Part shown: positions 34,544 to 54,070 of the stretch, piece by piece | Layout: each line of letters begins with the position of its first letter | Position numbering within the stretch: the first letter of the stretch is position 1 | Assembly (NCBI GenBank): GCA_046092445.1 | Contig: JBJTDR010000101.1 | Coordinates: 1,726-65,725, forward strand | DNA: 64,000 nt | Source: Hyphomicrobiales bacterium | GTDB lineage: Bacteria; Pseudomonadota; Alphaproteobacteria; Rhizobiales; Beijerinckiaceae | Reading direction: 5' to 3' | The notes under the pieces: generated by a model | Seen by the model: the letters and a program-made list of their open reading frames with translations, nothing else | Told to the model about the DNA's origin: nothing | The model's database searches: none | Translations under genes and position numbers: made by a program

Positions 34544-34636
34544 ACGTTCAATATTGTTTCATATTAATATTGTTAGCGCTTACAAGGATTTTATTCTTTG
34601 AAAGCGCTATAAAGACCTATGAAAAATAAAAGATCC

Positions 34637-34678
34637 CTGTAATTTGGGTAGTAAATAAAATTACACTGTAATTGGGTA
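34637..34678 (+). promoter_or_regulatory. two copies of a ctgtaatt(t)gggta motif with an embedded palindrome AATTACA-c-TGTAATT
   Basis: Copies at 34637-34650 and 34666-34678; palindrome at 34659-34673. They lie about 200 nt upstream of the first gene of the AT-rich block. Related copies occur at 49366-49380 and, on the other strand, 54219-54229. Confidence 0.4.
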
Positions 34679-34870
34679 ATGCCAGTTACTCGATTGACTT
34701 GAATGCAACGCCAGCGTTAGCCTAATTCATGGAGTATATGTAAAGAAAAAATTAGAGCCATCATCTTGCAAGTCTTCCCGGTTTAACGAGGGTTGATTGA
34801 GAAACACTTCTGCTGAGCATCGATGAAAAATAATATGACAAATATGAATATTTAGGGAGAATTTTCGATA

Positions 34871-35659
34871 ATGACCAATCCGAGTCTTAAGGCCATGGCA
34901 AGCTCGAAATCACCAAAATTCGGTTCTTTTGTCGTTGAATTCGCCACTCCGGGCATTGGTCATATCCTGAGGGCGTCGGGATGTGATTTCGTTCTGTTCG
35001 ACATGGAGCACTCAGGCTTCAGCATTGAGACGGTCAAGCAAAGCATTCGCTATTTTGAAGCTGCAGACGTTCGGATGATCGTGCGCGTACCGTCGAAGGA
35101 TTATGATCATATTGCCCGCGTCTGTGATATGGGTGCCGAAGGCATCATGTTGCCGATGGTGAATACCGCAGAGGAAGCCCGTCGCATTCTTGACAGCATC
35201 AAATACGTTCCGGAAGGCAAACGTGGCGTTGCACTCGGCGTTGCTCACGACAATTACCGCAATGTGGGGACAGTTGCTGAGCGGTTAACCGCTGCAAATC
35301 GGCGCACGACCTTGTTCTGCCAGATCGAGACCGTGGACGGCGTTGAAAATGCGGAAGCCATGGCAGCCATGGATGGCGTGGATTGTCTATGGGTTGGTCA
35401 TTTTGATCTTTCGGCGTCGCTCGGAATTCCGGGAGATTTTGGCAACAAGATTTTTACCGATGCAATTGCGAAGGTCGCCGCTGCAACGAAAAAACATGGC
35501 AAGGCACTTGGACGTCTTGTGCCGAATGTCGAAACCGGCATTGAATACAACAGACTCGGGTTCAACTTTATCTGTTATTCGGGCGATGTCTGGATCCTAC
35601 AGGGCGCTTTGACGGATGCGGTTGGTAAACTCCGGGAAGGCTGCATTTCACAAACATAA
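34871..35659 (+). CDS. HpcH/HpaI-family 2-keto-3-deoxy-acid aldolase
   Basis: Family-typical segments (FVLFDMEHSG, MIVRVP, GIMLPMV, QIET, LWVGHFDLSASLG). Confidence 0.85.
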   Translation: MTNPSLKAMASSKSPKFGSFVVEFATPGIGHILRASGCDFVLFDMEHSGFSIETVKQSIRYFEAADVRMIVRVPSKDYDHIARVCDMGAEGIMLPMVNTAEEARRILDSIKYVPEGKRGVALGVAHDNYRNVGTVAERLTAANRRTTLFCQIETVDGVENAEAMAAMDGVDCLWVGHFDLSASLGIPGDFGNKIFTDAIAKVAAATKKHGKALGRLVPNVETGIEYNRLGFNFICYSGDVWILQGALTDAVGKLREGCISQT

Positions 35660-35668
35660 GGTTTCGTT

Positions 35669-36718
35669 ATGAGCGCTCTTTATAGGGTTGCACTTTCGGG
35701 TGATTTCAGAAAAGCGGATGGCTCGCCCACCTTTCCTGATTTTGATACGCGCCCGCTTTTTGATGCTCCGGGGGTCGAGGTTGTTTATCTCGATATAGCA
35801 AACCCGATCCGGGCCGATCAGGTTGCCGATATCGATGCTCTCATATTGCTGACACCAAATTTCAGAGCTGAAAGCATTCATCCGAATGGTAGATTAGGAG
35901 TCGTAGCGCGCTTCGGTGTCGGATACGACAATGTTGATGTTGATGCTTGCACGAAAGCTGGTATTGCGTTGGTGATTACACCAGATGGCGTTCGGCGTCC
36001 GGTCGCAGTCTCTATCCTCGCGTTCATTCTTGCGCTTACCGGCAAGCTCATGATTAAGGACAAGCTGACCCGAGAGGGCCCTTCTGGGTTCAACCGCCGC
36101 GGCGAACACATGGGTGTTGGCCTCGTTGGGAGGACATTAGGTTCTGTGGGCATCGGCAATATAGGTGCAGAGCTATTCCGATTAGCTAAACCGCTCGATA
36201 TGCGGTTCATCGCGCATGATCCGTTTGCTGACACAGCCATCGCCCAAGAGCTTGGTATAGAGCTTGTTGGGCTTGAGGACGTATTTCGGCAGGCTGATAT
36301 TCTGACGATAAACTGTCCGCTAACTCCCCAAACGAAGCATCTCGTAAATGCCGAGCGGCTCGGATTGATGAAGCAAACGGCCTATTTTATCAACACAGCG
36401 CGCGGTCCAATAGTCGATCAGAAGGCGCTGACGAAGGTGCTTCAAGAGCATCGAATTGCCGGTGCAGGACTTGATGTGTTTGAAGTTGAACCGCCTGAGG
36501 CAGATGAGCCGATTTTGAAGCTCGATAATGTGGTGGTTGCTCCGCACGCTTTATGCTGGACGGATCAGTGTTTCGCCGGAAACGGCGCAGCTGACGTGCG
36601 CGCTGTACTCGATGTCCAACGTGGGACAGCCCCGCGTGGAGTTGTTAATTTCGCGGTTTTGGAAGACTCGCGCTTCAAGGCGCGCTTGGAAGGTTTCGCC
36701 CATCAGTTTGGATCATAA
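35669..36718 (+). CDS. D-isomer-specific 2-hydroxyacid dehydrogenase
   Basis: GVGYDNVDV, the NAD fold GSVGIGNIGAE, NTARGPIVD, GAGLDVFEVEPP and the catalytic-His context APHA. Confidence 0.85.
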   Translation: MSALYRVALSGDFRKADGSPTFPDFDTRPLFDAPGVEVVYLDIANPIRADQVADIDALILLTPNFRAESIHPNGRLGVVARFGVGYDNVDVDACTKAGIALVITPDGVRRPVAVSILAFILALTGKLMIKDKLTREGPSGFNRRGEHMGVGLVGRTLGSVGIGNIGAELFRLAKPLDMRFIAHDPFADTAIAQELGIELVGLEDVFRQADILTINCPLTPQTKHLVNAERLGLMKQTAYFINTARGPIVDQKALTKVLQEHRIAGAGLDVFEVEPPEADEPILKLDNVVVAPHALCWTDQCFAGNGAADVRAVLDVQRGTAPRGVVNFAVLEDSRFKARLEGFAHQFGS

Positions 36719-36871
36719 ATGTACGATCGGGGTTGCGCTAATTCTGACAAGCTGGGCGATCCTATCGAGTGATCCATTCGAAGCATTAATGCTGTGCTCG
36801 TCGATCCTGAGAAATGCAATCGGCCAGTAGTTGCAAAGGATCGATTACAAGTCGATGTGAGGAAAACCATC

Positions 36872-38824
36872 ATGATCAAAACCCCATCCCGCTCGGTTTG
36901 CCTGTTTGGCACCGAAGAGCCGGTTGAAGCGCCAATAATCCTGAAAGCCGGCCCGTTGTCGGCGGAGTTTGAAGCGGGAAACTTACGCTATGTCCGGTTT
37001 CATGGTGTGGAAATGATCCGGGCAGTGTCTTACATTGTGCGTGATCGTGATTGGGGCACCTATAATCCGCAGATTAGCAATCTGAAAATTATAACGGGCT
37101 CTGATCATTTCCACGTCAGTTATGATGCCGATGCGGGCGACGCGACACAAAATATGCGCTATTCAACTGTCATCAATGGTGATTCGACGGGCGCGCTAAG
37201 GTTCGAGAGCAATGCCGATGTCGTCACGGATTTTGTTACGAACCGAACCGGCTTCGTGGTGCTGCATCCGATTGAAGGTGTCGCTGGTCATCATGCCATG
37301 ATAGAGCATGTTGATGGTCGGCACGTCGAAACCCTGTTTCCTAAATTAATCGATCCTATCCAGCCAATGATGGAGTTGCGCGCGATTACGCATCATTTTG
37401 GACAGGGTGCGAAAGTACGCTGTTTGATGGAGGGCGATACCTTCGAGATGGAAGACCAGCGGAATTGGACGGATGCTTCTTACAAAACCTACGTGCGCCC
37501 CCTCGCTCTTCCGTGGCCGTACATGCTCGCTAAAGGTACAAAATTTTCACAAGCGGTGTCCCTTAGCGTTGAAGGGCAGCCATCCCACGGGGGTGCGGGA
37601 ACCGACGGTAGTAACGCCATTGTGGTAAAGCCTGGAAAATTTAAGGCTCCTGCACTTGGCTTCGGTCTCGACCCGGATGACTGCGAAAGTTTATTGAACC
37701 ATATTGATATGGCGCGCTCGTTGGCGCCGCATCACCTCATCTGCCATTATGACCCTCAACGAGGCCATTCCGCTGAAACGCTGAAGCAGCAACTTGCCAT
37801 CGCGCGTGAGCTTCGCGCAGAGCCATGGTTGGAGGCTGTCGTTGCTCGTGTCGAGGGTTGGCAGGACGAAGTATCAGCACTTGGCTCGGTTGTTGGTGTG
37901 CTCGGCAATCCTTTTCCCGTGGTGATGTTGTCGCCCGCATCGGATCTAAAATGTACGTTGCCCGGAACGACATGGCCTCCCTGTCCTCGAGCCAAAGATC
38001 TTTTCAATCATGCGCGTGTGTGCTTTCCAAAAGCAAAACTTGCTGGTGGCATGTTCAGCTACTTTACCGAATTGAACCGCAAGCGCCCGCCAGTCGACGT
38101 CATGGATTTGGTTAGCTTTACAACATCTGCGCTTGTCCATGCAGGCGATGACCGCTCCGCAACCGAGAGTCTCGAAGCACTGCCGCATATAGCCCGCAGC
38201 ATTCATGCGATCGTGGGAGATACGCCCTATGCGGTAGGCCCTAGCGCGATTGGGATGCGTGATAATCCATATGGCGCGAAGACGATGGATAATCGTGAAA
38301 GTATTCGTCAAGCAATGAACCGGAATGATCCGCGCCAGCAGAGCCTGCTCGGTGCAGCTTGGAACGTCGGGTATTTTGCCCATTTTGCGCAAGGCGGTGC
38401 CCGTTCAATCGCTCTTGGCGGAATCACCGGACCTTTTGGTCTATTGTCAACGCCCCAAAATTGGAAACAGGCTTGGTTTGATCAGAATCGCGGTCTATAT
38501 CCTGCTTATCATGTAATGCGGGTTCTTTCATCCTTCGCTGATGCAAATTTGTGCGAAGTTTCCATTGGAACACCGCGCGATGTGCAAGTGATTGCGATTG
38601 AGCGGAACGGCAGCATCGAGGCGTTAGTTGCCAATCTCACCGGTACCCACCAAAAGATCGAATTAGCGGGCTTTGACGGTTCCTTAATGAGTGCAATGCT
38701 CGATGCATCAACTTTTGCCTTAGCTTCGCAAAACTTATCTTTTATGAGCGAAACAGGGAGCAAGCTGGCCGGGCGATCGATCATGCTTGATGCATACGCT
38801 GTTATGCATCTTAAATCCGCTTGA
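36872..38824 (+). CDS. conserved-looking protein of unknown function (650 aa)
   Basis: Long uninterrupted ORF with the local codon usage. GAGGA lies 8 nt upstream of the ATG at 36872. I saw no signal peptide, TM segment or motif that I recognise. Confidence 0.6.
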   Translation: MIKTPSRSVCLFGTEEPVEAPIILKAGPLSAEFEAGNLRYVRFHGVEMIRAVSYIVRDRDWGTYNPQISNLKIITGSDHFHVSYDADAGDATQNMRYSTVINGDSTGALRFESNADVVTDFVTNRTGFVVLHPIEGVAGHHAMIEHVDGRHVETLFPKLIDPIQPMMELRAITHHFGQGAKVRCLMEGDTFEMEDQRNWTDASYKTYVRPLALPWPYMLAKGTKFSQAVSLSVEGQPSHGGAGTDGSNAIVVKPGKFKAPALGFGLDPDDCESLLNHIDMARSLAPHHLICHYDPQRGHSAETLKQQLAIARELRAEPWLEAVVARVEGWQDEVSALGSVVGVLGNPFPVVMLSPASDLKCTLPGTTWPPCPRAKDLFNHARVCFPKAKLAGGMFSYFTELNRKRPPVDVMDLVSFTTSALVHAGDDRSATESLEALPHIARSIHAIVGDTPYAVGPSAIGMRDNPYGAKTMDNRESIRQAMNRNDPRQQSLLGAAWNVGYFAHFAQGGARSIALGGITGPFGLLSTPQNWKQAWFDQNRGLYPAYHVMRVLSSFADANLCEVSIGTPRDVQVIAIERNGSIEALVANLTGTHQKIELAGFDGSLMSAMLDASTFALASQNLSFMSETGSKLAGRSIMLDAYAVMHLKSA

Positions 38825-38836
38825 GCGTTGCCAAGC

Positions 38837-39889
38837 TCAAGCCTTCGGCGACCATTTCTTCGGCTGCACGGATGCGTGCGAAGCTGCCGATTCATAAGCA
38901 GCTTCAACAAGAGCGAATGTTTTCAGATTGTCGACGCCTGAGGTTTCTGCGTCCTGTCCTGCGCGAAAAGATGCAAGCATATGAGCGTTGGTATGCAGCA
39001 CTGCTTCTTGTGACACATGCCATGGACGGCTAGTCCATGAAAGAAGCGGTCCGCCAATATTTTCTTCAAACGACAAACCCTGCGTTGTTACGACCATCTT
39101 TTCGCCCCGCGTAACAATAATGGAGCCTTGGGGACCTTCAATCTCGACAAGCGTCTCAGGAAACTGATCGGGGATACGGCGTGCCTCATATGTCGCTTCG
39201 ACGATTGAGACTGCGCCCGAGTCATGTCTAAGCATCATTGTCGCAGTGTCTTCTGCTTTAATGTTTAGGTTTCGCCGCTGTGTCTCGCATGAGAGATGTG
39301 CAACCTCGCCCATCAACCAACGCGCGAGGTCAAGTACGTGAATACCAACGTCGAGGATCACGAGACGGTCTTCCTGAGCTAAGTAAGGCTGCCCGCGATA
39401 GACATCGAAACCTGTTCGAAACGATAGCCTTGCCCAGTTGGGGTCGCCGATTGCGCCTGAGTCTAGAACCGCTTTTACGCGTCGCATCGATGTTGCAAAT
39501 CTGAAATTCTCATGGACAGCGATCCATGCGCCGTGTGCTTTGGCGTGCTCAACGATGGCGACACACTCGTTCCAGTTTGGCGCAAATGGCTTCTGGACGA
39601 TCATTGCGATTTTGCGCTCGGCTGCCATTGCGGCCAATGCGCGATGGCTCCCCATGCGGGTTGTAATATCAAGCAAATCAATCGGTATCGACTCGAGCAT
39701 TGTCGCCGCATCAGTAAACCATGCCGCATTGAAACGCTTGCCTGCAGCTTCAGCTTTCATGGGATCCTGATCGCACACGGCAACCAACTCGGCGTTTTGT
39801 GTTATTAGGTTGACCCACGCATTGAGATGATTTTGAGCGTAAAAGCCGCACCCAATCAGTCCAATCTTTGTCGTGCCACATTCAACCAT
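38837..39889 (-). CDS. Gfo/Idh/MocA-family oxidoreductase
   Basis: Trimmed to the ATG at 39889 (MVECGTTKIGLIGCGFYAQNH Rossmann start). QKPFA segment and a C-terminal alpha/beta domain. Confidence 0.8.
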   Translation of the reverse strand: MVECGTTKIGLIGCGFYAQNHLNAWVNLITQNAELVAVCDQDPMKAEAAGKRFNAAWFTDAATMLESIPIDLLDITTRMGSHRALAAMAAERKIAMIVQKPFAPNWNECVAIVEHAKAHGAWIAVHENFRFATSMRRVKAVLDSGAIGDPNWARLSFRTGFDVYRGQPYLAQEDRLVILDVGIHVLDLARWLMGEVAHLSCETQRRNLNIKAEDTATMMLRHDSGAVSIVEATYEARRIPDQFPETLVEIEGPQGSIIVTRGEKMVVTTQGLSFEENIGGPLLSWTSRPWHVSQEAVLHTNAHMLASFRAGQDAETSGVDNLKTFALVEAAYESAASHASVQPKKWSPKA

Positions 39890-40184
39890 AATTGAGAATC
39901 CTTTGAGGTGCTTTCTGTTATCGGTCAACGCTGATGATATTGTGATTGTCACTCGGTAACAAGTTGGTTTAGCTTGGCTTTTTGGTCAGAAGAAAAAAGA
40001 TTTTTAGTTCGCTTTTTACTCGCCTTTTTGGTTCAAGAGGGATTAACCGATCTCCATCGAGCCACGAAGAGATTCTGGATGTGGATGCTTCCCAACAACC
40101 TGAAAAAGAATTGCAATCAATGGATTTGCAATGGAAGGAAAGTCATATTGTTAAGTCGCAAAAGTGAACTGGGGCTGATTTGAA

Positions 40185-40928
40185 ATGTCAAGAGTATTGC
40201 TTGTCACCGGCGCCAGCCGAGGAATTGGTGCTGCAACCGCTGTCGCTGGAGCACGCGCGGGATATTCCGTCGCCGTACACTATGATACCCATGGTGAGGA
40301 GGCCGACGCCGTTTGTGCCAAGATACGCAGTGCCGGTGGGCGAGCGATAGCTATATCTGGGGATATGGCCTCCGAACCAAATATTGTCCGGATGTTTGAA
40401 GATGTCACCTCACAATTGGGCACAATTTCGGCGCTCGTTAACAATGCTGGTAGCGTCATTGCTGTCCGCGCAATTGAGGATATTGATTCATCGATTCTTG
40501 ATCGCATCTTGGCCGTGAATCTTGCTGGTCCGATCTACTGTTGCCGAGAGGCGGTTCGACGCATGTCGTCGGCGCGAGGCGGAAATGGCGGCGCGATTGT
40601 TAATATTTCGTCCATGGCAGCACTGCTGGGGGGCCTACCGAACGAGGTACCTTATGCCGCTACGAAGGGAGGTGTGGACTCGCTAACTATCGGGCTGGCC
40701 CGTGAGGTGGCAACTCAGGGAATTCGCGTTAATGCGATCAGGCCGGGCGTTATTGACACGCCAATCCATGCTTTCCATGGTGCAGGGTTCGTCGAGCGTT
40801 TTTCACCAAATTTACCGATGCAACGCGCGGGTACCGCGGATGAGGTTGCCGAAGCTGCGATTTGGTTACTTTCGGCGGCTGCTTCCTATGTTACGGGGTC
40901 AATTCTAAACGTTTCAGGCGGACGCTAG
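40185..40928 (+). CDS. SDR-family oxidoreductase
   Basis: TGASRGIG cofactor motif, NNAG, and the YAATKG catalytic Tyr-x3-Lys. Confidence 0.85.
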   Translation: MSRVLLVTGASRGIGAATAVAGARAGYSVAVHYDTHGEEADAVCAKIRSAGGRAIAISGDMASEPNIVRMFEDVTSQLGTISALVNNAGSVIAVRAIEDIDSSILDRILAVNLAGPIYCCREAVRRMSSARGGNGGAIVNISSMAALLGGLPNEVPYAATKGGVDSLTIGLAREVATQGIRVNAIRPGVIDTPIHAFHGAGFVERFSPNLPMQRAGTADEVAEAAIWLLSAAASYVTGSILNVSGGR

Positions 40929-41707
40929 GCGGGCATTTTTTTGATCTTGCTGCCGGCAATTGCAGTTGTTAGTGTATCCTTCAACAAAGATATATCCGTT
41001 CCGAGACAGAGCATTCTGAATCCTTTTGCTTGCCAAGCTCGTGCTATGTCTGAATTTCCAGCCAGAAAACCGGCGGGCTTACCTGCTTTTGTGCAGGCGG
41101 ATATGAGGTATTTTACGGCCGCTTCGAACTGGGGGTGATCAAACTGTCCGGCTATGCCCATGCTATCGGTTAGATCAAAATGCCCGAGCCAACCGACATC
41201 AATGCCTGACACGGCCATGATTGTGTCAGCATTTTCAATTCCTCTTGCCGTCTCGAGGAGGGCAATCGCCATCACGCGCTCATTGGCCTCACGCATTTTG
41301 TTAGCAACGTCACCGCCAAGATAATCATCATGCGCCATTGAAAATGCCAATCCCCTGACACCTTTCGGGCGATAACGCGTCCATGCCGCGATCTGACGGG
41401 CTTGCTCTTCGGTTTCGACCATCGGGACCATGATCCCTAGTGCGCCTGCATCCAGAACTGTTGCAATCAGATGGTAATGGCACCCCGGAACGCGAACCAT
41501 CGGCGCAATGCCTAGTCCTCGTGCAAATGCGATCTGTGCCTTGATTGTGTCAATGCCGACACCGCTGTGTTCCATATCAAGAATGACAAAACTCGCGCCC
41601 GCGGCATGCAAGATCTGGCAAAGGCCTGGAGTGAAAAACTCGAATACCATAGTGCCAAAGGCGACGTCGCCTGCTTCGAGTGCTACCTTTACCGGATTTG
41701 ATTTCAT
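40925..41707 (-). CDS. HpcH/HpaI-family aldolase, second paralog
   Basis: Same family segments as 34871..35659 (FVILDMEHSG, PMVRVP, GIMVPMV, LLET, GWLGHFDLTDSMG), but clearly diverged from it. Confidence 0.85.
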   Translation of the reverse strand: MKSNPVKVALEAGDVAFGTMVFEFFTPGLCQILHAAGASFVILDMEHSGVGIDTIKAQIAFARGLGIAPMVRVPGCHYHLIATVLDAGALGIMVPMVETEEQARQIAAWTRYRPKGVRGLAFSMAHDDYLGGDVANKMREANERVMAIALLETARGIENADTIMAVSGIDVGWLGHFDLTDSMGIAGQFDHPQFEAAVKYLISACTKAGKPAGFLAGNSDIARAWQAKGFRMLCLGTDISLLKDTLTTAIAGSKIKKMPA

Positions 41708-42373
41708 ATAACCCTACCGAGAGACACAAAACGACCGATCTAGGCATGGAGACATTAATTTTTCTGCTGACTTACGCACGTCAAAGACATGTTCATTTTA
41801 TAAAAAAGCGCACGAGACGCAAAAGTTCATTACCGATATCAACTGTTAAAACAGATAATAGATTTTTCAATGTTTTTCGTCGCGCGTTTCAACGCTATTA
41901 GTTTTTGTCACGCTCCGATCTAAATGCAGCATGAAGGCAGGGATAAAGAGGATTTAATTGAAGAGAGATATTCTCTTTACCTGTGGCGTGATAACCGCCA
42001 ACCTCTGGCGGTATGAAATTTCATTTGTCGGTAATGGTTCGACGTTTCGGTCTCTGAGTCGACTGTTTCGGAAGTTTCCTAATCATGTTTGGTTAGAGAC
42101 CGTCGAAGTTTTCGGTTGTTGGGAAATGACAATCTACTGTTACATTGTTGGATAAACAAAAAGTAGGAATATCGGACATGACTCGTCTTGGTAAAGTAAC
42201 ATAAACGGAGGATACCGCTGAATAGGGTTGCCAAATAGATTTAAATTCGTTGATCAAAAGTCGAATCGCAAGCGAGTTGAGAAAATATTTCTTGGAATTG
42301 TGTTTACTGTTTCCGTTAGACATCAGGTCGACCCAATACTTCTGTGTTGTGACATTGCAAAGAAGATACGAAG

Positions 42374-45534: not shown

Positions 45535-45630
45535 TCAGCATAATACAAAAACTTAAACGCAGAGGTGCGGTTTTGGATTTTCGAAACCGCACCTCCAAAC
45601 TCAAAGAAGTAAACAGGACGGAGAGCAGAA

Positions 45631-47163
45631 ATGGAAGATGCTGTTCCAACGCCTGTGGTTGAAATGCTTGATATCGTCAAGGTTTTTCCTGGCGTTAGAG
45701 CCCTTGACTCAGTTTCTTTTTCTGTGAGGCATGGCGAGATACATGCGTTGCTAGGTAAGAATGGTGCGGGAAAATCAACCTTGATGCATGTTCTGACAGG
45801 GTTATACACTCCTGACTCAGGATCGATTCGCGTCAGAGATATCCAATACGAAAATTTGAATACTGCGCGGGCGAAAGAGGCTGGTATCGCACTAGTCGCG
45901 CAGCATGCAAAGTTCGTTCCGGGCCTAAGCATCGCTGAAAATTTATACAGCGGGATGCTGCCGGTAGGACAATTTGGCTTTGTGGACTGGAAGAAAATGA
46001 GACGCGATGCCAGTGATAGGCTCGGTCAGTTCGATATTGATATTGATGTCACCCGGTTAATGGAAGAGACGACTGTTGCCGAGCGGCAGATGATAGAAAT
46101 TGCGCGGGCACTGTTTGCTGATGCGAGTGTGATTATTCTCGATGAGCCCACGGCTCCTCTGCCAAAACATGATGTGGTAAAATTATTTGAATTTGTTCGA
46201 AGACAGCGTGAGCGTGGTGCGTCTTTCATCTATATTTCACACTATCTCGAGGAAATATTTGAAGTTGCTGATCACGTAACTGTAATGCGCAACGGCACTG
46301 TAGCGGGGTCCTCGCCGGTTAAAGACATTACTCAGCCAGAACTAATACGATTGATTAGTGGTGCAGATGTCGAGCGCTACAAGAGAGAAGGTAGTTCGAT
46401 TGGTGGAGCAGTTCTCGAAGTTAAGGGGCTAACGCGACCGGGGGCCTATTCCGATGTCAATTTGATGTTTCATGGTGGTGAGGTCGTAGGTCTCACGGGA
46501 CTTGAAGGCAGTGGACCCGGCGAACTTGCGCGCGGTCTTTTCGGACTGGAGACGCTCGGTGAGGGCAAGGTAACACTCAATTCCGTTTCCTATCGCAATG
46601 GAAGCCCCATTGTTGCTCTTCAGCAAGGCTTAGCTTATCTTCCGAGAGATCGTCACGGCCTTGGCATCATTGGAGTTCGGAGTGTTCGTGACAATGTCTC
46701 GCTATCGGTGCTTGAACGGCTGGAACCGCTTTTTGGGTTGATTAACAGTGCTAAAGAGAAAAAGCTTGTTCAAGATTATATCGATGTTCTGGGAATTAAG
46801 GCTCCGTCAATGAGCACAGCGGTTGAAAATCTCAGTGGCGGCAACCAGCAAAAGGTTGTTGTCGCAAAACTAGCCGCTACCGAACCAAAAATGCTTTTTC
46901 TTGATGAACCCACTCAAGGTGTGGATGTTCAGGCGAAGGTTGAGTTACTTCGGATTGTTGATGATTTGAGCAAGCGCGGTGTTGCTGTAGCTGTTGTTTC
47001 TGATGAACTTAGCGAGTTGATAGATATTTGTGATAGAATCGTTGTGTTCTATCGCGGCGCTATCATTCGAGAATTCCGAAAGGATAGTGATAAGATAACC
47101 ACTGCAATATTATTGGCTGCTATCGAAGGTGAGACCATGGAGATGGTGGATGCAAGTGTCTAA
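45631..47163 (+). CDS. sugar ABC transporter ATP-binding protein, duplicated cassette (RbsA-like)
   Basis: The first cassette has GKNGAGKST and ILDEPTA. The second has the degenerate Walker A typical of RbsA-type proteins, plus LSGGNQQK and LFLDEPTQGVD. Confidence 0.9.
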   Translation: MEDAVPTPVVEMLDIVKVFPGVRALDSVSFSVRHGEIHALLGKNGAGKSTLMHVLTGLYTPDSGSIRVRDIQYENLNTARAKEAGIALVAQHAKFVPGLSIAENLYSGMLPVGQFGFVDWKKMRRDASDRLGQFDIDIDVTRLMEETTVAERQMIEIARALFADASVIILDEPTAPLPKHDVVKLFEFVRRQRERGASFIYISHYLEEIFEVADHVTVMRNGTVAGSSPVKDITQPELIRLISGADVERYKREGSSIGGAVLEVKGLTRPGAYSDVNLMFHGGEVVGLTGLEGSGPGELARGLFGLETLGEGKVTLNSVSYRNGSPIVALQQGLAYLPRDRHGLGIIGVRSVRDNVSLSVLERLEPLFGLINSAKEKKLVQDYIDVLGIKAPSMSTAVENLSGGNQQKVVVAKLAATEPKMLFLDEPTQGVDVQAKVELLRIVDDLSKRGVAVAVVSDELSELIDICDRIVVFYRGAIIREFRKDSDKITTAILLAAIEGETMEMVDASV

Positions 47164-48208
47164 ATACATTCCGACTTTGCTAGATCATTTGATTTGGGTG
47201 ATTCTAGGTTTAGTATTTGTTTTTTTTGTATTTCAGTCACCTGTATTTCTGACATCGACAAATATCACGAATATTCTTACTGCCGCAGCCGTTCTGGGGA
47301 TCTTGGTTGTGGGGCAGACGTTTGTTCTGATAACGGGGAATTTTGATCTCTCTTCCGAGTCGACGCTGGGGGTTACAGCTCTCTTCGGTATGTTTTTGAT
47401 CGTCCCTGCAACGCCCCCTTATTGGGGTGGAGGGATAATGCTCAATCCTTACCTTGCAATTATCACGATTCTTCTAACTGGTGCGCTGATTGGTTATGTT
47501 GTCGGATTTTTGATCACGGTTGGTAAAATGAATAACTTTATTGTGACGCTCGCAATGCTGCTTATTCTAAGAGGCCTTATGATGGCTTTCACTCAGGGAA
47601 AGCCCATAAGCGGACTGAATTTTGAGCCTGCTGAAGTATACTTTTGGTTGGGTCACGAGGCGCTTTTCCAAATCCCCAATTCGGCTCGGATCCCAATAGC
47701 CGTTGTTGCAACAGCAGTAGTGTTTGGAGCCGGACATATCTTCCTTAATCACCGTCGATTTGGCCGAGAACTTTATGCAATTGGGGGCAACAAGAATGCA
47801 GCCATTGCTTCGGGTATCGACGCGGATCGCCGCATCCGCCAAGTTTATGTTATGAGCGGAATACTAGCTGCGCTCGCAGGTTGGATGCTTGCTGGTCGGG
47901 TCGGTTCAATCCAAGTCAACCTTGGTGACGGATACATATTCACGGTTATGGCGGCAGCAGTGATCGGTGGCATCAGTTTGCAGGGTGGCCGCGGAACAAT
48001 GCTGGGCGCACTCGGTGGTGTACTTTTATTATCGACAATTGATCGTGGTCTAAATCTCATGAGAGTTTCCGTGTTTTGGGTAAAGGTTATTCAAGGCCTA
48101 ATAATCATGTTTGCCATGTTTATTGACGCCCAGCGTGTTCGTTACCGCACACCCCATGTCAAGGTTGCTAGGTCAGTGGTTGCGAGATCAACGGACAAGA
48201 TGGCATAG
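47150..48208 (+). CDS. sugar ABC transporter permease (RbsC-like)
   Basis: Polytopic BPD-2 type permease. The ATG at 47150 overlaps the ATPase 3' end. Confidence 0.85.
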   Translation: MQVSKYIPTLLDHLIWVILGLVFVFFVFQSPVFLTSTNITNILTAAAVLGILVVGQTFVLITGNFDLSSESTLGVTALFGMFLIVPATPPYWGGGIMLNPYLAIITILLTGALIGYVVGFLITVGKMNNFIVTLAMLLILRGLMMAFTQGKPISGLNFEPAEVYFWLGHEALFQIPNSARIPIAVVATAVVFGAGHIFLNHRRFGRELYAIGGNKNAAIASGIDADRRIRQVYVMSGILAALAGWMLAGRVGSIQVNLGDGYIFTVMAAAVIGGISLQGGRGTMLGALGGVLLLSTIDRGLNLMRVSVFWVKVIQGLIIMFAMFIDAQRVRYRTPHVKVARSVVARSTDKMA

Positions 48209-48351
48209 GCGTTTTCTTCTCTCTTCTCCTGAGTGCGTTGCACCACGCGTCCATTAACGGCTGAGCAGTGGTTTCTTTCGGTCAAATTGTAATCGGGTCG
48301 TGTCTAAATTTGATAAGTCTTCTCATACCTAACTGAACAGGGATCATCACG

Positions 48352-49350
48352 ATGACAATTGCTTTCGGCTTACTCGGTGCGGGTCGTATCGGCAAAACAC
48401 ATGCGACAGCGATACTCGGAATTCCCGGTGCAAAGCTCGCGGCGGTCTATGATCCTATTGCCGCCGCAGCCGAGCACATTGTTGCTATATGCGGTGCGCG
48501 CCGCGCATCCGTTGAAGAAATTCTCGCTGACAAGTCGATCGATGCTGTTCTTATCTGTACACCTACTGATTTGCATGCAGACCAAATTGAACTCTCAGCG
48601 AAAGCGGGTAAAGCAATTTTCTGCGAAAAGCCTGTTGATCTTTGTGCCAAGCGCGTTCGTGCGTGTCTCAAAGTAATTGACGCCACAAAGGCCAAGCTGA
48701 TGATTGGCTTCAACCGGCGTTTCGACGTCAATTTTTCTGCGGTTCGGAAGAGTATTGACGCCGATGATATCGGTTGTGTCGAGTTGGTCCAGATTGTATC
48801 TCGTGATCCTTGCCCTCCTTCGCTAGATTACATCAAGCGCTCGGGAGGTCTTTTCCGCGATATGATGATTCATGATTTAGACTTGGCACGTTTTCTCCTC
48901 AATGGTGAGGAGATTGTATCCGTTTCGGCCACAGGTTCTGTGCTTGTTGATTATGATATTGGCGCGGCTGCCGATGTTGATACGGCTACTGCGACGTTGC
49001 GATCCAAATCAGGTAAAATCGTTGTGATAACCAATTCTCGCCGGGCAACCTATGGCTATGATCAGCGCATCGAAATTCATGGATCGAAGGGCGCTTTAAG
49101 TGCAGCCAATATTCATAAAAATACTGTAACGCTTGCCAATACTGATGGTTATCGAGAGGCTCCCCTGATGAACTTCTTCATGGAGCGTTATGCCGATGCT
49201 TATCGCTCGGAATTGCAAAGTTTTGTGGATGCAGTTCAGAACGGAACCCCCATTTCGCCATCGGGTATTGACGGGCTTAAGGCACTCGAGCTTGCGGATG
49301 CTTGTGTAATATCTATGCAGACAAAGGCTGAAGTAATCGTTTCTGTGTAA
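48352..49350 (+). CDS. iolG: myo-inositol 2-dehydrogenase-like Gfo/Idh/MocA oxidoreductase
   Basis: FGLLGAGRIGKTHA, ICTPTDLHAD, AIFCEKPVDL, GFNRRFD, IKRSGGLFRDMMIHD and SRRATYGYDQRIEIHGSKG all match my recollection of rhizobial IdhA/IolG closely. Confidence 0.75.
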   Translation: MTIAFGLLGAGRIGKTHATAILGIPGAKLAAVYDPIAAAAEHIVAICGARRASVEEILADKSIDAVLICTPTDLHADQIELSAKAGKAIFCEKPVDLCAKRVRACLKVIDATKAKLMIGFNRRFDVNFSAVRKSIDADDIGCVELVQIVSRDPCPPSLDYIKRSGGLFRDMMIHDLDLARFLLNGEEIVSVSATGSVLVDYDIGAAADVDTATATLRSKSGKIVVITNSRRATYGYDQRIEIHGSKGALSAANIHKNTVTLANTDGYREAPLMNFFMERYADAYRSELQSFVDAVQNGTPISPSGIDGLKALELADACVISMQTKAEVIVSV

Positions 49351-49506
49351 TGAACAAAAAAATTCCTGTAATTTTGGATACCGCTAGATATATGTCCCGG
49401 AGATAGAGCGTGCACTATTCCCGGGCCACGAAAAACAATTCCGATGTAAAGGGTAATTCTGCAGTTAATATCTATGCGATTTATTCTGAACCCCGCAAAA
49501 GGTAAG

Positions 49507-50337
49507 ATGATGAAGAGCCCTGTTTATTATGCCCCGCTAGGAGGCTTGCCTAACCAGACTGAACTATTAACCGATCGTGCCGTTTTCAAGGAAGCTTACG
49601 CGTTTATTCCGAGGGGCGTCTTGCGCGATACCGTGACAAGTTATCTTCCCTTCTGGGATAATACTCGAGCCTGGATTATCGCTCGCCCACTCTCCGGGTT
49701 CGCTGAGACGTTCTCGCAGTATATCATGGAAGTGGCACCGAGCGGGGGCAGTGAGAAGCCAGAACCGGACCCAAATGCAGAGGCCGTCTTGTTTGTTGTT
49801 GATGGTACCTTCAATCTAATTCTTCTTGGTGAATCTCATGAGATGAGGCCCGGAAGCTACGCGTTTATTCCACCTGGCGCCCAGTGGAGTCTGAAGAACA
49901 CGAGCACGGTTCCAATCCGTTTCCATTGGATTCGGAAGGCCTATGACGCGGTAGCTGGTATCGACCCACCTACTGCATTCGTTGTAAACGAGCAGGATAT
50001 TTTACCAATTTCCATGCCGAATACAAACGAAGTTTGGACGACGACACGGTTTGTTGAACCTATGGATGTTCGGCACGACATGCACGTGACTATTGTCTCC
50101 TTCGAGCCCGGTGGAGTTATCCCGTTTGCTGAAACCCATGTAATGGAACACGGGCTTTATGTTCTCGAAGGCAAAGCAGTTTACAAGCTTAACGAGGATT
50201 GGGTAGAAGTTGAAGCAGGCGACTTTATGTGGCTGCGCGCCTTTTGTCCCCAGGCTTGCTATGCTGGCGGACCCGGGCGTTTTCGTTATCTGCTCTACAA
50301 GGATGTCAACCGGCATATGAGGCTCTCGCTGCGATGA
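49507..50337 (+). CDS. allE: (S)-ureidoglycine aminohydrolase-like bicupin
   Basis: Colinear with E. coli YlbA/AllE as I remember it. In particular ETHVMEHGLYVLEGKAVYKLNEDWVEVEAGDFMW...YLLYKDVNRH compares with [24 protein letters not shown]...YIYSKDCNRD. Confidence 0.7.
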   Translation: MMKSPVYYAPLGGLPNQTELLTDRAVFKEAYAFIPRGVLRDTVTSYLPFWDNTRAWIIARPLSGFAETFSQYIMEVAPSGGSEKPEPDPNAEAVLFVVDGTFNLILLGESHEMRPGSYAFIPPGAQWSLKNTSTVPIRFHWIRKAYDAVAGIDPPTAFVVNEQDILPISMPNTNEVWTTTRFVEPMDVRHDMHVTIVSFEPGGVIPFAETHVMEHGLYVLEGKAVYKLNEDWVEVEAGDFMWLRAFCPQACYAGGPGRFRYLLYKDVNRHMRLSLR

Positions 50338-50852
50338 GCCACATTCTTCATGTTCTGCCGTTGACGAAATGTGCGTTCTCTCCCTTCGGTGATGTGATTG
50401 AGGCTGAGGGTGCTGAGCTTCTGTGCATCAATCAGGGGTTCGGCGCCCGTTACAATAATTTGACCGAGGTGCAGGTCACGATCGAAGGCGGCGTGACCAA
50501 TGTGAGCTTAATCGTTGGCGCTGTTCGGCCGTATCCGATCTCTATCAATGTTATGGAACGTCACCCACTTGGGAGCCAACTCTTTTATCCGTTACAGGAT
50601 CGTCCTTGGTTGGTCGTTGTTTGCACTGACCCTCGTGACGCCGAAAGCTTTTTTGCATTTCACGCGACAGGTCGTCAGGGGGTCAATTACGCACGGGGCG
50701 TCTGGCATCATCCGCTGCTTGTCCACGAGAATGATAGCCGCTTTCTAGTCATTGATCGCAAAGGACCCGGAAATAATCTTGAGGAATATTGGCGCAACGC
50801 AGGGAATATCTTTTTGGCAGTTGAACCGCTTGACTTGTTGCGAGGTGTTTGA
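50334..50852 (+). CDS. allA: ureidoglycolate lyase
   Basis: ATGA overlap with allE. LPLTKCAFSPFGDVIE, ERHPLGSQ, GVNYARGVWHHPL and FLVIDR are colinear with E. coli AllA as I remember it. Confidence 0.75.
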   Translation: MSHILHVLPLTKCAFSPFGDVIEAEGAELLCINQGFGARYNNLTEVQVTIEGGVTNVSLIVGAVRPYPISINVMERHPLGSQLFYPLQDRPWLVVVCTDPRDAESFFAFHATGRQGVNYARGVWHHPLLVHENDSRFLVIDRKGPGNNLEEYWRNAGNIFLAVEPLDLLRGV

Positions 50853-52247
50853 TCAGGGCAAGATTTTTCCGGGGTTTAGAAGATTGGTTGGATCAAATGC
50901 TGCTTTAATTAAACGCATGAATTTGAGCCGCGCTGGATCACCCCATCTCAACAGCGCTTTTTTCTTTTCAATACCAATTCCATGCTCCGCTGAAAATGAG
51001 CCACCAGAGCCTTTTATCGGTTGGTAAACACAATCAGATATTTGATCGTGAATTTCTGCAAACGATCGTTCACTTGTTATCGTGATGTGCAAGTTAGCAT
51101 CGCACAAATGACCGAGAACAAATAGTATCAGGTTCTTATTGATCTGATGGAGCGAATGCTCAAGACGATTAACATATTCATCGAGTTGCTCTTGGGGCAC
51201 GGATACATCGTACCATAATCCGCCCGGATACTGGCGGTCGACGACCCAATCTTCGCGTATCCGCCAGACATCCGCTCGTTCACGCTGTGATTTCAGAGCG
51301 AGTGCATCTACAAAACCTTCCGTTGACTCGCACTTTTCGAGAACCCTTTTTGCTGCGACTTCGAAATCTACGATGGAATCAAGTTCTACTTCTAATATGA
51401 CAAAAATCTTAGCGTTCTTTGCAAAAACTGCCAAGTGCCTAAAGTTTAGAAGTGATGCGGCCGTTTCAAAATGTGTCCGCCACATCATCTCGCTTCGCAG
51501 CACGTTTACGCCACCTGCACTTCTCAGACGGCGTAAAGCCTTTAGTGAAGCTGCCGCTGTGTTGAACGAGAGCAGAAAAGTGCCTGCCCGGGCATGGATG
51601 GCCTCAAGGCGGATCACTGCTTTGGTGATGATCCCAAGTGTACCCTCCGATCCAATTAACAAGTGTTTGATATCATAACCAATATTCGACTTCAGAATGG
51701 TCGTCATATCATCCAGCAGCGAGCCATCTGCCATAACCGCCTCAAGGCCTAGAACGCGACTACGCATACTACCGTTTCGAAATGCTTCCATGCCCCCTGC
51801 ATTGGTTGCAATCATGCCGCCAATCGTACAGCTGTCGCGCGCCGCGAGATCAATGCCTGCTGAAAGCCCGAAGGGCTCGACTGCTTTGCTGAGGGCGGCG
51901 AGTGTTACGCCACTTTCAACGATGGCGAAGCGCCCGATCGGGTCAATTTTGAGGATTTTTCCAAATTTCTTTGTCAGTAAAGAGACTTGCCCAGGGTTTG
52001 AGACGCCGCCGCCGACGAGGCCGGTTCGTCCGCCGAGTGTAACGACCGAGACATGCTCGTGAAGGCACCATTCGATAAATTTTTGAATTTGTTGTGTATT
52101 TTCAGGCGTTAAGGCAATACCGGACCCAAGATTTGCACGGTCGAAACCGGGATCGAACTTGTCGAGTCCCGAACCCAGATGCACGTTTTCGGGGCCCATT
52201 ATAACCCTCATGGCATCGATCTGTTCGGGGGTCAGTGGCGTGCTCAT
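50853..52247 (-). CDS. FAD-linked oxidase (GlcD / D-2-hydroxyacid dehydrogenase-like)
   Basis: FAD-binding PCMH domain (VTLGGRTGLVGG) and a C-terminal FAD-oxidase domain (SFSAEHGIG, DPTNLLNPGKI). The ATG at 52247 is preferred. Confidence 0.8.
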   Translation of the reverse strand: MSTPLTPEQIDAMRVIMGPENVHLGSGLDKFDPGFDRANLGSGIALTPENTQQIQKFIEWCLHEHVSVVTLGGRTGLVGGGVSNPGQVSLLTKKFGKILKIDPIGRFAIVESGVTLAALSKAVEPFGLSAGIDLAARDSCTIGGMIATNAGGMEAFRNGSMRSRVLGLEAVMADGSLLDDMTTILKSNIGYDIKHLLIGSEGTLGIITKAVIRLEAIHARAGTFLLSFNTAAASLKALRRLRSAGGVNVLRSEMMWRTHFETAASLLNFRHLAVFAKNAKIFVILEVELDSIVDFEVAAKRVLEKCESTEGFVDALALKSQRERADVWRIREDWVVDRQYPGGLWYDVSVPQEQLDEYVNRLEHSLHQINKNLILFVLGHLCDANLHITITSERSFAEIHDQISDCVYQPIKGSGGSFSAEHGIGIEKKKALLRWGDPARLKFMRLIKAAFDPTNLLNPGKILP

Positions 52248-52351
52248 GGAGTACCTGTAGCCGAGACTATAGTATTGATAGTAATTTCTGAAATACAAAA
52301 ATTTTTAAATTTCTCATATCTTTTTTTACAAAAAATTTAATTTTTCTATTT

Positions 52352-54070
52352 TTATTTCCATTTTTTATTCGATACAAGAAAATCAAAATCGCAACCGTCA
52401 TCTGCCTGCATAATATGTGTATCGTAGAGATATTGATAACCGCGCGATTTTGATTTGACCCGAATGATCAATTCCAATCGTCTCTTTGATAATTCGTTTT
52501 CACTGACCAGAACGTCGATGGAGCGATTTGCAACGCTGACTTTTATACGATCACCGTTCTTCACCAATGCCAGATTTCCGCCCGACGCGGCATCGGGGGC
52601 GACGTGCAGAATGATGGTGCCATAGGCGGTGCCACTCATGCGTGCATCGGAAATCCGCACCATGTCCTTGATTCCGGCTTTGGAGAGCTTGGACGGGATC
52701 GGAATATAGCCTGCTTCGGGCATCGCCGACTCGCTTGTCGGGCCTGCATTCTGCAAAATCAGGCAATCATTCGGGGTTACGTCGAGATCCGGGCTATCGA
52801 TACGGCTTGCAAGGTCTGCCAGCGACGAAAACACAATCGCGCGTCCTTCTGTCTCGAATAAGGCCGGATCAGCCGCGGCGCGCTTCATAATGGCGCCGCG
52901 CGGGGCTAAATTGCCGAAAAGCGCAACAAGTCCGCCCGTTTCGCGCACCGGATCGGCAAAGGGGCGGATGATTTCGCGATCAACCCAGGGATGGGCCTTC
53001 TCGATTCGCTCGCCGATGGTTTCACCTGTGATGGTCTCGCAATCGAGATGCAGGAGATGTTTCAGTTCATGCAAAACGGCCGGAATTCCGCCTGCTGCGT
53101 GCAAATCCTCCATGTAGCCGACGCCTGTGGGCTTCAAATCGACAAGAACGGGCGTTGTTTCGCTCAGTTCATTCATGTGGCGCAGGTCGATGGTGTGGCC
53201 AAGGCGGCCTGCAATTGCGGTGAGATGGATGATTGCATTGGTCGAGCCGCCAAGGGCCAAGAGGACGCGGAGCGCGTTCTCAAACGCTTTATGCGTCATG
53301 ATCTGGCTGGGTTTGCGCTCCGATCCGATGAGCGACACGGCCAAACGGCCGGTCTCTTCCGCCATGCGCAGGCGGTTGGAATCGACCGCAGGGATCGCGG
53401 CAGAACCAGATGGCATCATGCCGAGCGCCTCGGCCAGAGAGGCCATTGTACTGGCGGTGCCCATGACGGCGCAGGTGCCGGCTGTGGAGGCGAGACGCTG
53501 CTCCACCGCGGTTATTTCGTCGTTACTCACGGAACCCGCGCGATATTGGGCCCAAAACCGGCGGCAATCGGTGCAGGCGCCAAGGCGCTCGCCGCGATGT
53601 TTGCTGGTCGACATTGGCCCGGCGACAAGCTGGACGGCAGGGATATCCGCCGACGCCGCACCCATGAGCTGGGCCGGAACCGTCTTGTCACAACCGCCTA
53701 AAAGTACAACAGAATCCATGGGTTGCGCCCGGATCATCTCCTCGACGTCGATGGACATGAGGTTGCGGAATTTAAGGCTGGTTGGGTTGAGGAAGACTTC
53801 GCCGAGCGAGATGGTCGGGAATTCGACGGGCAGGGCGCCTGCCGCCAGAACGCCGCGTTTGACGGCCTCGATCAGTTCGGGGAAATGCCGATGGCAATTG
53901 TTGAAGCCGCTTGCGGAATGGGCAATGCCGACAATCGGCCTGTCGAGCATCTCGCGGCTATAACCCATTGAACTTGCGAAGGATCTTCGCAAATAAAGGC
54001 TGAAATCCCGGTCGCCATATTGGGTGAGGCCGCGGGCGAAACCTTGGCTCTTCTGGTTGTCATCAGGCAT
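52352..54070 (-). CDS. IlvD/Edd-family sugar-acid dehydratase
   Basis: Family motifs are present (CDKTVPAQLMG, GTCAVMGTASTM). The C-terminal RGYQYLYDTHIMQADDGCDFDFL is typical of the pentonate/aldonate dehydratase branch. Confidence 0.88.
   Translation of the reverse strand: MPDDNQKSQGFARGLTQYGDRDFSLYLRRSFASSMGYSREMLDRPIVGIAHSASGFNNCHRHFPELIEAVKRGVLAAGALPVEFPTISLGEVFLNPTSLKFRNLMSIDVEEMIRAQPMDSVVLLGGCDKTVPAQLMGAASADIPAVQLVAGPMSTSKHRGERLGACTDCRRFWAQYRAGSVSNDEITAVEQRLASTAGTCAVMGTASTMASLAEALGMMPSGSAAIPAVDSNRLRMAEETGRLAVSLIGSERKPSQIMTHKAFENALRVLLALGGSTNAIIHLTAIAGRLGHTIDLRHMNELSETTPVLVDLKPTGVGYMEDLHAAGGIPAVLHELKHLLHLDCETITGETIGERIEKAHPWVDREIIRPFADPVRETGGLVALFGNLAPRGAIMKRAAADPALFETEGRAIVFSSLADLASRIDSPDLDVTPNDCLILQNAGPTSESAMPEAGYIPIPSKLSKAGIKDMVRISDARMSGTAYGTIILHVAPDAASGGNLALVKNGDRIKVSVANRSIDVLVSENELSKRRLELIIRVKSKSRGYQYLYDTHIMQADDGCDFDFLVSNKKWK

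Follow-up and report, generated by a model that had tools for sequence, protein, structure and literature searches.

An AT-rich block beside iolC in a freshwater Rhizobiales genome: probably an old, resident composite of carbohydrate modules with an apiose-type core

We analysed 64,000 nucleotides (the window) of contig JBJTDR010000101.1 from a Hyphomicrobiales bacterium of the family Beijerinckiaceae (GCA_046092445.1, a metagenome-type assembly of 2.53 Mb in 120 contigs with 56.0% G+C (GC); G000 in the following), in which a block of about 18 kb, at 34544-52550 next to the gene iolC, is much richer in AT than the DNA around it. The block is probably a resident and old composite of carbohydrate modules, with a cassette of apiose type at its core, at a locus prone to rearrangement and recombination, and not a recent import. 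The preliminary description of this DNA had taken it to be probably acquired from a donor of lower GC, by recombination and not through a mobile element; exchange by recombination is supported as the way in which the block changes, and recent acquisition from such a donor finds no support in the relatives or in the rest of the genome.

The deviating composition itself is real. GC is 0.568 in 1-34543, 0.487 in 34544-52550 and 0.582 in 52551-64000, and an unconstrained maximum-likelihood segmentation with two breakpoints (log-likelihood gain 186) sets the borders at 34501 and 52550; GC thus falls from 57-58% to 48.7% in 34.5-52.55 kb. A sudden fall after iolC had been described, with five 60-nt spot counts (34, 39, 29, 18 and 22 G+C), all of which we reproduced exactly. 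The deviation is also seen in sliding-window GC, codon-position and tetranucleotide analyses: the block lies within the lowest 1% of GC among 1110 18-kb windows of the genome (mean 55.8%, standard deviation 2.45), and its tetranucleotide distance, normalised for composition, is the second highest among 202 windows. The shift falls almost wholly on third codon positions (GC3), which are at 0.41-0.54 in 14 of the 14 called open reading frames (ORFs) of the block versus 0.62 +/- 0.08 genome-wide (a reference of 1888 crude ORFs), GC1 and GC2 of the same ORFs being ordinary. The spacers within the block are AT-rich as described, at 9-46% GC.

A chimeric contig, or a mis-binned stretch of a co-occurring organism of lower GC, might be thought of, given the 120-contig, metagenome-type assembly and several AT-rich islands at contig ends, and we give this explanation hardly any credence. 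Positions 34077-41659 are recovered at 99.6-99.9% identity in single-run Logan assemblies (five runs) and 46352-55191 at 99.85% identity in a single-run assembly (one run). Both junctions are thus spanned by independent assemblies and the same adjacency is seen in the sister genome, so that the block is no artefact of binning or assembly, and a chimera was rejected.

This sister genome, G002, is the closest relative of G000 and an independent metagenome-assembled genome (MAG) from another sample. It carries the entire block in the same place and equally poor in GC, the match extending from iolC as far as the tRNA genes beyond the right border. The wider distribution was searched in 18 genomes of the genus, whose sampled GC is about 50-59%, and in 23 genomes of the same family and order but of other genera: the cassette, with its gene for a protein of the D-apionate lactonase family (ApnL), is present in 8/18 and 0/23, respectively, and was probably already there in the ancestor of the genus, to be kept in these eight species. 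In seven of the eight carriers the cassette is AT-richer than its host, with GC3 under a host background that was taken from samples of 8-40 kb (e.g. 0.47 vs 0.61 in G008 and 0.42 vs 0.55 in G013). The preliminary description had counted a block that is syntenic and equally AT-rich in all relatives as an ancient feature; the AT-richness is indeed largely shared, and synteny extends to G002 only. In G008, G009, G013, G014 and G016 the gene order is GntR - HpcH1 - HacidDH1 - four-gene CUT1 ABC transporter - ApnL - FAH-family hydratase, with a CUT2 importer adjoining the GntR gene in G009 and G014, and with GFO1, SDR1 and HpcH2 clustered in G009 and G016 (gene names as in the list below).

The ApnL phylogeny argues for the same conclusion. 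In a tree of 84 ApnL sequences the eight of the genus are monophyletic (support 99), and their topology, (G000,G002),((G006,G013),(G008,(G014,(G016,G009)))), is that of PriA, the single gene that we used as a proxy of the species tree, in which (G000,G002) stands on a long branch beside two more clades; PriA and ApnL are the one marker and the one block gene that were treed. This congruence is the mark of a cassette that is probably old and largely vertical, with losses, and speaks against a recent import. The genus clade is nested among MAGs of high-GC Rhizobiales, the nearest homologues outside the genus being in genomes of 60-70% GC, and in each of the nine cassette genes the closest relative of G000 is G002 and vice versa.

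Nor is the block alone in its composition. About 17 runs of low-GC3 genes, with 18% of the ORFs, are found in G000 (e.g. C111:614-16097, C21:1328-16065, C57:5079-19835 and C85:7267-21843), and the four AT-rich islands that we sampled carry genes for class I lysyl-tRNA synthetase (LysRS), FabI, Asd, ArgF, PhoU, IolB, SOD and a GcrA-like protein, most of which score above their NCBIfam cutoffs. As low GC3 is shared with islands of housekeeping genes it cannot alone mark foreign origin, and as comparable segments hold essential genes AT-richness does not, in this genome, divide accessory from core DNA. Candidate causes of the low GC3 are weaker synonymous constraint or weaker biased gene conversion in these segments, repeated introgression, and ancient import, among which we make no choice.

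Gene content was assigned by Pfam and NCBIfam profile searches of the ORFs. The features of the block and its flanks, in order, are:

32558-34543, plus strand: iolC, fused 5-dehydro-2-deoxygluconokinase/aldolase, the GC-normal left flank (NF047869, 720 bits, cutoff 600; GC3 0.62; 92% amino acid identity to G002)
34544-34870: left border, AT-rich spacer (33% GC) in which the motif CTGTAATT(T)GGGTA occurs twice (repeat family D5)
34871-35659, plus strand: HpcH1, class II (HpcH/HpaI) aldolase (PF03328)
35669-36718, plus strand: HacidDH1, D-isomer-specific 2-hydroxyacid dehydrogenase (PF02826, PF00389)
36872-38824, plus strand: ApnL-family lactonase, 650 amino acids (aa) (NF049900, PF25837/8/9)
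38837-39889, minus strand: GFO1, ApsD-like aldose 1-dehydrogenase by sequence (Gfo/Idh/MocA family), 350 aa (PDB 5UHW)
40185-40928, plus strand: SDR1, short-chain dehydrogenase (PF13561, PF00106)
40925-41707, minus strand: HpcH2, second class II aldolase (PF03328)
41708-42373: ORF-free stretch of 666 nt, 40% GC, the place of a third HpcH aldolase (288 aa) in G002
42374-43346, plus strand: HacidDH2 pseudogene (frameshift near 42447-42481, in-frame TAG at 43089)
43342-44154, minus strand: SDR2, PRK06198-type short-chain dehydrogenase, 270 aa (NF004847, 404 bits, cutoff 240)
44155-44487: spacer, the site of a 320-aa RpiR-type regulator in G002 (ORF 16737-17699 of its joined locus)
44488-48208, plus strand: CUT2 (ribose-type) ABC importer, with substrate-binding protein (SBP) at 44488-45534, fused double ATPase at 45631-47163 and permease at 47129-48208 (PF13407, PF00005 twice, PF02653)
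48352-49350, plus strand: iolG, inositol 2-dehydrogenase (TIGR04380, 409 bits, cutoff 355)
49507-50337, plus strand: allE, (S)-ureidoglycine aminohydrolase (NF008376, 516 bits, cutoff 338)
50334-50852, plus strand: allA, ureidoglycolate lyase family (NF009932, 153.6 bits, just under the cutoff of 160)
50853-52247, minus strand: GlcD-like FAD-linked oxidase, 464 aa (PF01565, PF02913)
52299-52560: right border, 53-nt spacer of 9% GC plus the AT-rich final 200 nt or so of the IlvD/Edd gene
52352-54070, minus strand: IlvD/Edd-family dehydratase, the GC-normal right flank (NF004784, 810 bits, cutoff 539)
58180-58520: tRNA-Pro(CGG), minus strand, and tRNA-Gln(TTG), plus strand, 5.6 kb past the right AT-rich border

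Comparison of G000 with G002 shows how the block changes. The flanks are 91-97% identical and the block is a mosaic of 64-93% identity, with a step from 64-72% to 97% at 52331. The flanks have a synonymous divergence (dS) of 0.11-0.31, and about 28 further orthologue pairs typically lie at 0.11-0.32; in the block dS is 0.26-0.37 for HacidDH1, ApnL and the ATPase, 0.6-1.4 for GFO1, HpcH1, SDR1, HpcH2, the SBP, the permease and allA, and saturated for SDR2, iolG, allE and GlcD (median 1.17 in the block vs 0.20 outside, p 1.5e-5). Such patchy dS at uniformly low GC3 points to allelic replacement by homologous recombination. dS also correlates with GC3, with rho -0.76 over 42 gene pairs and rho -0.49 (p 0.007) over the 28 pairs outside the block; for SDR2, GC3 is 0.41 in G000 and 0.56 in G002. 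The ratio of non-synonymous to synonymous divergence (dN/dS) is 0.02-0.18 in all intact block genes, which are therefore under purifying selection and free of decay; relaxed selection as the source of the AT-richness was rejected on this ground.

Gene loss is the other process. A 320-aa RpiR regulator, the third HpcH aldolase and an intact HacidDH2 frame are present in G002 and gone from G000, as are an enolase-superfamily gene (379 aa) and a 242-aa gene that G002 has by GlcD. By tblastn no remnant of the third aldolase is found in 41708-42373, and the intact 323-aa HacidDH2 of G002 matches two pieces in different frames, its ORF being truncated in G000, so that one of the 15 genes formerly counted in the block is a pseudogene. 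There is no RpiR homologue anywhere in the G000 assembly, and at this locus both G000 and G002 are without the GntR regulator, the CUT1 transporter and the FAH-family hydratase that other carriers have. Since relatives keep RpiR and GntR genes there, a block without a regulator is a derived loss. In the history that we propose, the lineage of G000 would have lost the CUT1 transporter, both regulators and the third aldolase, and the cassette would have been overwritten repeatedly by homologous recombination with divergent alleles, with no mobile element taking part. The remainder of the block would be an inositol-linked remnant (the HacidDH2 pseudogene, SDR2 and iolG), the allE-allA pair and the GlcD-like oxidase.

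Rearrangement is also evident at the left side of the block. In the synteny and DNA-homology comparison, which covered 12 genus genomes, no empty site was found: G002, the only close relative, is occupied, and the other members of the genus are too rearranged to show one. G000 and G002 are unrelated upstream of iolC and synteny breaks right there; at this place (14600-32597) G000 has a Dpp-type ABC operon and an MmgE/PrpD gene, and G002 (joined locus L009+L010, 29706-40000) a flavin monooxygenase, a second RpiR gene and an ABC system of NitT/TauT type. G004, which has no cassette, shows the order iolC-RpiR-iolD-SDR-priA; in G000 iolD is on contig C112, iolB on C111, and priA too is on another contig than the block. 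G016 has two full-length iolC copies of equal similarity (contigs C50 and C8), by duplication or from a mixed bin. iolG has DNA homologues in 12/12 of the genus genomes compared, and SDR2, 77% identical in amino acids to the gene of G004, has orthologues adjoining iolD or iolG in relatives.

As previously described, neither an integrase or transposase nor a transcription factor is found among the block ORFs by Pfam and NCBIfam, and no att-like direct or inverted repeats occur at the borders beyond short matches at chance level. A LysR gene at 21397-22290 is the regulator closest to the block, and from 22.3 to 64 kb there is none. The block had also been said to lack a flanking tRNA, which holds for the borders themselves, and tRNA-Pro and tRNA-Gln lie 5.6 kb beyond the right one, with no integrase among the window ORFs in between and with tRNA-Gln 100% conserved across the genus. 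Out of the features of a classical genomic island deviating composition is thus present, and neither mobility genes, repeats or a tRNA insertion, nor an empty site, nor phylogenetic conflict was found. Between this border and the tRNAs lie GC-normal genes for IlvD/Edd, an aldo-keto reductase, a protein of the beta-lactamase family and a DerI/EryI-like isomerase. Among the 12 genus genomes G002 alone shares them, which extends the variable region beyond the AT-rich domain; IlvD/Edd is 98% identical in amino acids to that of G002, and 11 other genus genomes gave no orthologue-level DNA match to it.

Two further observations concern these surroundings. The RpiB-type gene adjoining tRNA-Pro (57634-58065) scores 241.6 on the D-erythrulose-4-phosphate isomerase (DerI/EryI) model, with a cutoff of 240; the DerI/EryI isomerase is the last enzyme of apionate route 3 and of the erythritol pathway. 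Directly past tRNA-Gln a terC riboswitch (58586-58638) precedes a TerC gene.

The core of the block reads as an apiose-type cassette. D-apiose is a branched sugar of plant walls. The best structure for GFO1 is PDB 5UHW, which we take to be ApsD, at 320 bits (E 1e-94), all other structures giving at most 74 bits, and homologues with 69-77% identity carry the JGI label 'D-apiose dehydrogenase'; judged by sequence, GFO1 is of the ApsD-like D-apiose 1-dehydrogenase type. A canonical lactonase had been reported as missing, and the 650-aa protein is a member of the D-apionate lactonase family (NF049900, E 1e-194), the Pfam families PF25837/8/9 (Apionate_lact) being on record for the identical product; a Pfam search with the 676-aa ApnL ORF returned no domain, the family coming from NCBIfam and the recorded Pfam matches, and no solved structure matched the protein by sequence. 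The best PDB matches of HacidDH1 are PGDH and glyoxylate reductases, and it has 58-80% identity to its counterparts beside ApnL in other taxa. Full-length alignments of HpcH1 and HpcH2 to GarL and YfaU show that both keep the His, Arg, Glu and Asp aligned to H50, R75, E153 and D179 of GarL (1DXE), residues with catalytic roles in GarL and HpaI. With the GlcD-like oxidase and the CUT2 importer, also confirmed by Pfam and NCBIfam, this bears out the sugar-oxidation content first described.

The association recurs outside the genus. The trio HpcH-HacidDH-ApnL is found in 26/84 ApnL loci (Dongiaceae, Geminicoccaceae, Lichenihabitans, Aestuariivirgaceae and others), neighbourhood counts in these outgroups being approximate as crude ORF calls in high-GC loci include spurious antisense ORFs (clusters c11, c19, c25 and c26). 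In outgroups the trio is followed by D-erythronate dehydrogenase, 3-oxo-tetronate kinase and decarboxylase genes, all above NCBIfam cutoffs, and G000 has OtnC/OtnK-like, DenD-like and Hyi/OtnI-like genes elsewhere. ApnO-like proteins (275 aa, PDB 5T57 416 bits) occur in 5/84 ApnL loci, and the whole G000 assembly has no ApnO homologue (tblastn, E at most 1e-3). OiaK, OiaC and the RuBisCO-like OiaT/OiaX are not found in the block by Pfam and NCBIfam, the search for RuBisCO-like proteins being confined to it; the sole DUF1537-type kinase found, on contig C68, stands beside an OtnC-like gene as its pair, and the outgroup kinase that it matches has 521 bits on the OtnK model and 106 bits on OiaK.

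The pathway that we propose would start with uptake of the sugar by the CUT2 importer, oxidation at C1 to a lactone by the ApsD-like dehydrogenase and opening of the lactone to an aldonate by the ApnL-family lactonase. Given the lack of ApnO in the genome, the aldonate would pass to the co-conserved D-2-hydroxyacid dehydrogenase and the two intact class II HpcH aldolases, either through oxidation at C2 and retro-aldol cleavage or through dehydration by the neighbouring IlvD/Edd enzyme and cleavage. From D-apionate, formaldehyde would be freed in the retro-aldol cleavage by either chemistry, and the small 2-oxo acids and aldehydes produced could feed the tetronate genes (OtnC/OtnK, DenD-like and OtnI-like) elsewhere in the genome. 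Class II pyruvate aldolases are known to catalyse reactions of this type when run in the direction of synthesis (PMC10022506, PMC10992282). No link between apionate and aldolases was found in the literature searched; PMC13753588 mentions uncharacterised lactonase and dehydrogenase contexts, and not this aldolase context. We put forward as a tentative, rather unlikely conjecture that the trio is a fifth, ApnO-independent D-apiose route and, linked to this, that low-GC3 islands, also those with housekeeping genes, mark segments in which recombination maintains deep allelic divergence in this freshwater Rhizobiales genus. By such a route D-apionate may be oxidised at C2 or dehydrated and cleaved by retro-aldol reaction to formaldehyde and 2-oxo-tetronate, hydroxypyruvate or pyruvate, and these products may enter tetronate (OtnI/OtnK/OtnC) or glycerate routes.

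A serious rival on the side of function, though we doubt it, is that the cassette encodes an ordinary Dahms-type (non-phosphorylative) pathway, one that serves a linear pentose or deoxyhexose and has no part for D-apiose, in which dehydrogenase, lactonase, IlvD/Edd dehydratase and HpcH aldolase would yield pyruvate and glycolaldehyde or lactaldehyde, and the 2-hydroxyacid dehydrogenase and GlcD-like oxidase would handle the C2/C3 product. The IlvD/Edd protein scores 670 bits on the L-arabinonate dehydratase model, below its cutoff of 882, and in G014 ApnL has an unrelated IlvD/Edd gene two genes away; the resemblance of the HpcH aldolases to YfaU and GarL and the score of ApnL under the equivalog cutoff likewise fit a linear sugar. 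However, GFO1 is specifically ApsD-like (5UHW at 320 vs at most 74 bits, and the naming at source), D-apionolactone is the substrate of the only lactonases of this family that have been characterised, a dehydratase is missing within 10 kb at most trio loci of other taxa, and two to three aldolase paralogues exceed the needs of a linear sugar.

As regards origin, recent acquisition, in this lineage, from a donor of lower GC that lies outside the genus, with donor composition kept, would account for the abrupt drop in GC and GC3, the deviating tetranucleotide signature and the patchy presence of the cassette in the genus. It is nevertheless very improbable, for the same site is occupied in the sister genome, ApnL of the genus is monophyletic and congruent with PriA, the closest outside homologues sit in genomes of 60-70% GC, iolG and SDR2 of the block are near-universal in the genus, and housekeeping genes elsewhere in the genome are equally low in GC3. 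A second possibility is that the genus ancestor took up the cassette long ago from a donor of low GC, with amelioration slow or opposed since then (e.g. by silencing or low expression). This agrees with a cassette that is AT-richer than its host in 7/8 carriers, has GC3 (0.42-0.50) under the mean GC3 of all sampled genus genomes (0.53-0.68) and is absent from the 23 genomes of other genera; we think such an import unlikely, since ApnL branches inside the genus, at 0.4-0.9 substitutions per site, are long enough for ample amelioration, the closest outgroups belong to high-GC Rhizobiales, and housekeeping islands of like composition point to a process within the genome. The block and the other AT-rich islands could also have been recombined into the 56-57% GC lineage of G000 and G002 from congeners of 50-53% GC, an introgression with which the GC range of the genus, both correlations of dS with GC3 and the patchy dS of the block are compatible; this is quite improbable as well, because G000 and G002 are mutually closest for every cassette gene and equidistant from the sampled low-GC species, the GC3 of the cassette is below the mean of any sampled congener, and no sampled donor exceeds 73% DNA identity.

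Several points weigh against our reading of the block as an old resident composite with an apiose-type core. The species tree rests on PriA as its single gene and the GC3 backgrounds of the relatives on the 8-40 kb samples. The correlation of dS with GC3 could partly reflect weaker synonymous constraint in AT-rich genes, which leaves patchy dS at uniform GC3 as the one specific argument for recombination. Our reading does not account for the persistent AT-richness of the cassette across such divergence, and an ancient low-GC import into the genus ancestor keeps the low probability given above. With respect to function, ApnL reaches 648 bits and the equivalog cutoff is 750, as is the case for all seven homologues sampled from other clades, which score 620-680 bits, NCBIfam scores not separating 'true' ApnL clades; the SBP has no close characterised relative, and on these two grounds the substrate is one that we infer. 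The steps after the aldonate are hypothetical, and IlvD/Edd lies outside the AT-rich domain, 14 kb from ApnL.

Among the other observations in and around the block, the motif CTGTAATT(T)GGGTA / GGAATTGGGTA is found at 34636-34650, 34665-34678, 49365-49380 and 54219-54232 (minus strand), i.e. twice upstream of HpcH1, once upstream of allE and once in the divergent spacer between IlvD and the aldo-keto reductase gene. Counting was limited to exact-like copies of repeat family D5, as a fuzzy search was too permissive to inform. The shared motif is a candidate operator of a regulator encoded elsewhere, the local RpiR and GntR being gone. In 45535-45630 a strong GC-rich hairpin (GAGGTGCGGTTT...AAACCGCACCTC) lies between the genes for the SBP and the ATPase; it probably serves as an attenuator or stabiliser within the operon and so keeps the SBP in excess. 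At the right border the 53-nt, 9% GC spacer (52299-52351) contains an A/T palindrome (AAAAATTTTT) and lies between the IlvD/Edd stop and a 481-aa reading of the GlcD-like gene; if this gene is called at 464 aa the non-coding gap is 52248-52351. The GlcD-like protein, whose exact sequence is not on record, is only 65% identical in amino acids to that of G002. allE-allA is the only ureide gene pair in the window, where no other ureide gene was found; homologous pairs at 69-70% DNA identity are present on other contigs in G004 and G015, about 7 kb from a HacidDH2-like gene.

In general terms, the block is a warning that an abrupt AT-rich segment without mobility genes need not be a recent import. 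Its distinguishing features are the recombination mosaic together with stepwise gene loss, which included both regulators. As to function, it is a well-documented example of an ApsD/ApnL cassette without ApnO and with aldolases, whose catalytic residues are intact, which is under purifying selection and which recurs in many Alphaproteobacteria. If true, an undescribed apiose route would bear on the use of carbon from plant walls and duckweed by planktonic freshwater bacteria, and it could be tested with five or six recombinant enzymes.

Oxidative pathways for D-apiose and D-apionate were reportedly set out by Carter et al. 2018 (Nat Chem Biol 14:696). They are reviewed in PMC13753588, and with them the block shares an ApsD-type Gfo/Idh/MocA dehydrogenase and an ApnL-family lactonase beside a ribose-type ABC importer, as well as, in outgroup loci, tetronate genes near ApnL (cf. 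routes 2 and 3 in PMC13753588). It differs in that ApnO is missing from the assembly, OiaK, OiaC and OiaT/OiaX from the block, and the ApnL score is below its cutoff; the missing enzymes are replaced, in the block, by a D-2-hydroxyacid dehydrogenase together with two or three HpcH aldolases of class II. The Dahms and Weimberg pathways, with YfaU, GarL and HpaI aldolases, resemble it in 1-dehydrogenase, lactonase and metal-dependent cleavage of HpcH-family type, with IlvD/Edd adjacent; unlike them, the lactonase is of the ApnL family and not of SMP30 or amidohydrolase type, the aldolase has several paralogues, and the dehydratase is outside the compositional block and missing from most homologous loci.

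With the alphaproteobacterial iol locus (IolR of RpiR type) the block has in common iolC at its border, iolG inside and an SDR gene whose orthologue follows iolD in G004, whereas iolD and iolB are on other contigs, RpiR is deleted and the apiose-type cassette interrupts the iol genes; out of the full set of iolG, iolC, iolD, iolE, iolB and IolR, iolC and iolG lie here and score above their cutoffs. Non-mobile flexible islands of streamlined aquatic bacteria are similar in their deviant composition, patchy presence among congeners and lack of integrase, transposase and att sites, and in the replacement of alleles with sharp identity breakpoints and a variable gene set; in distinction to these, the gene tree of this cassette is congruent with the species proxy, and the cassette is old and largely vertical.

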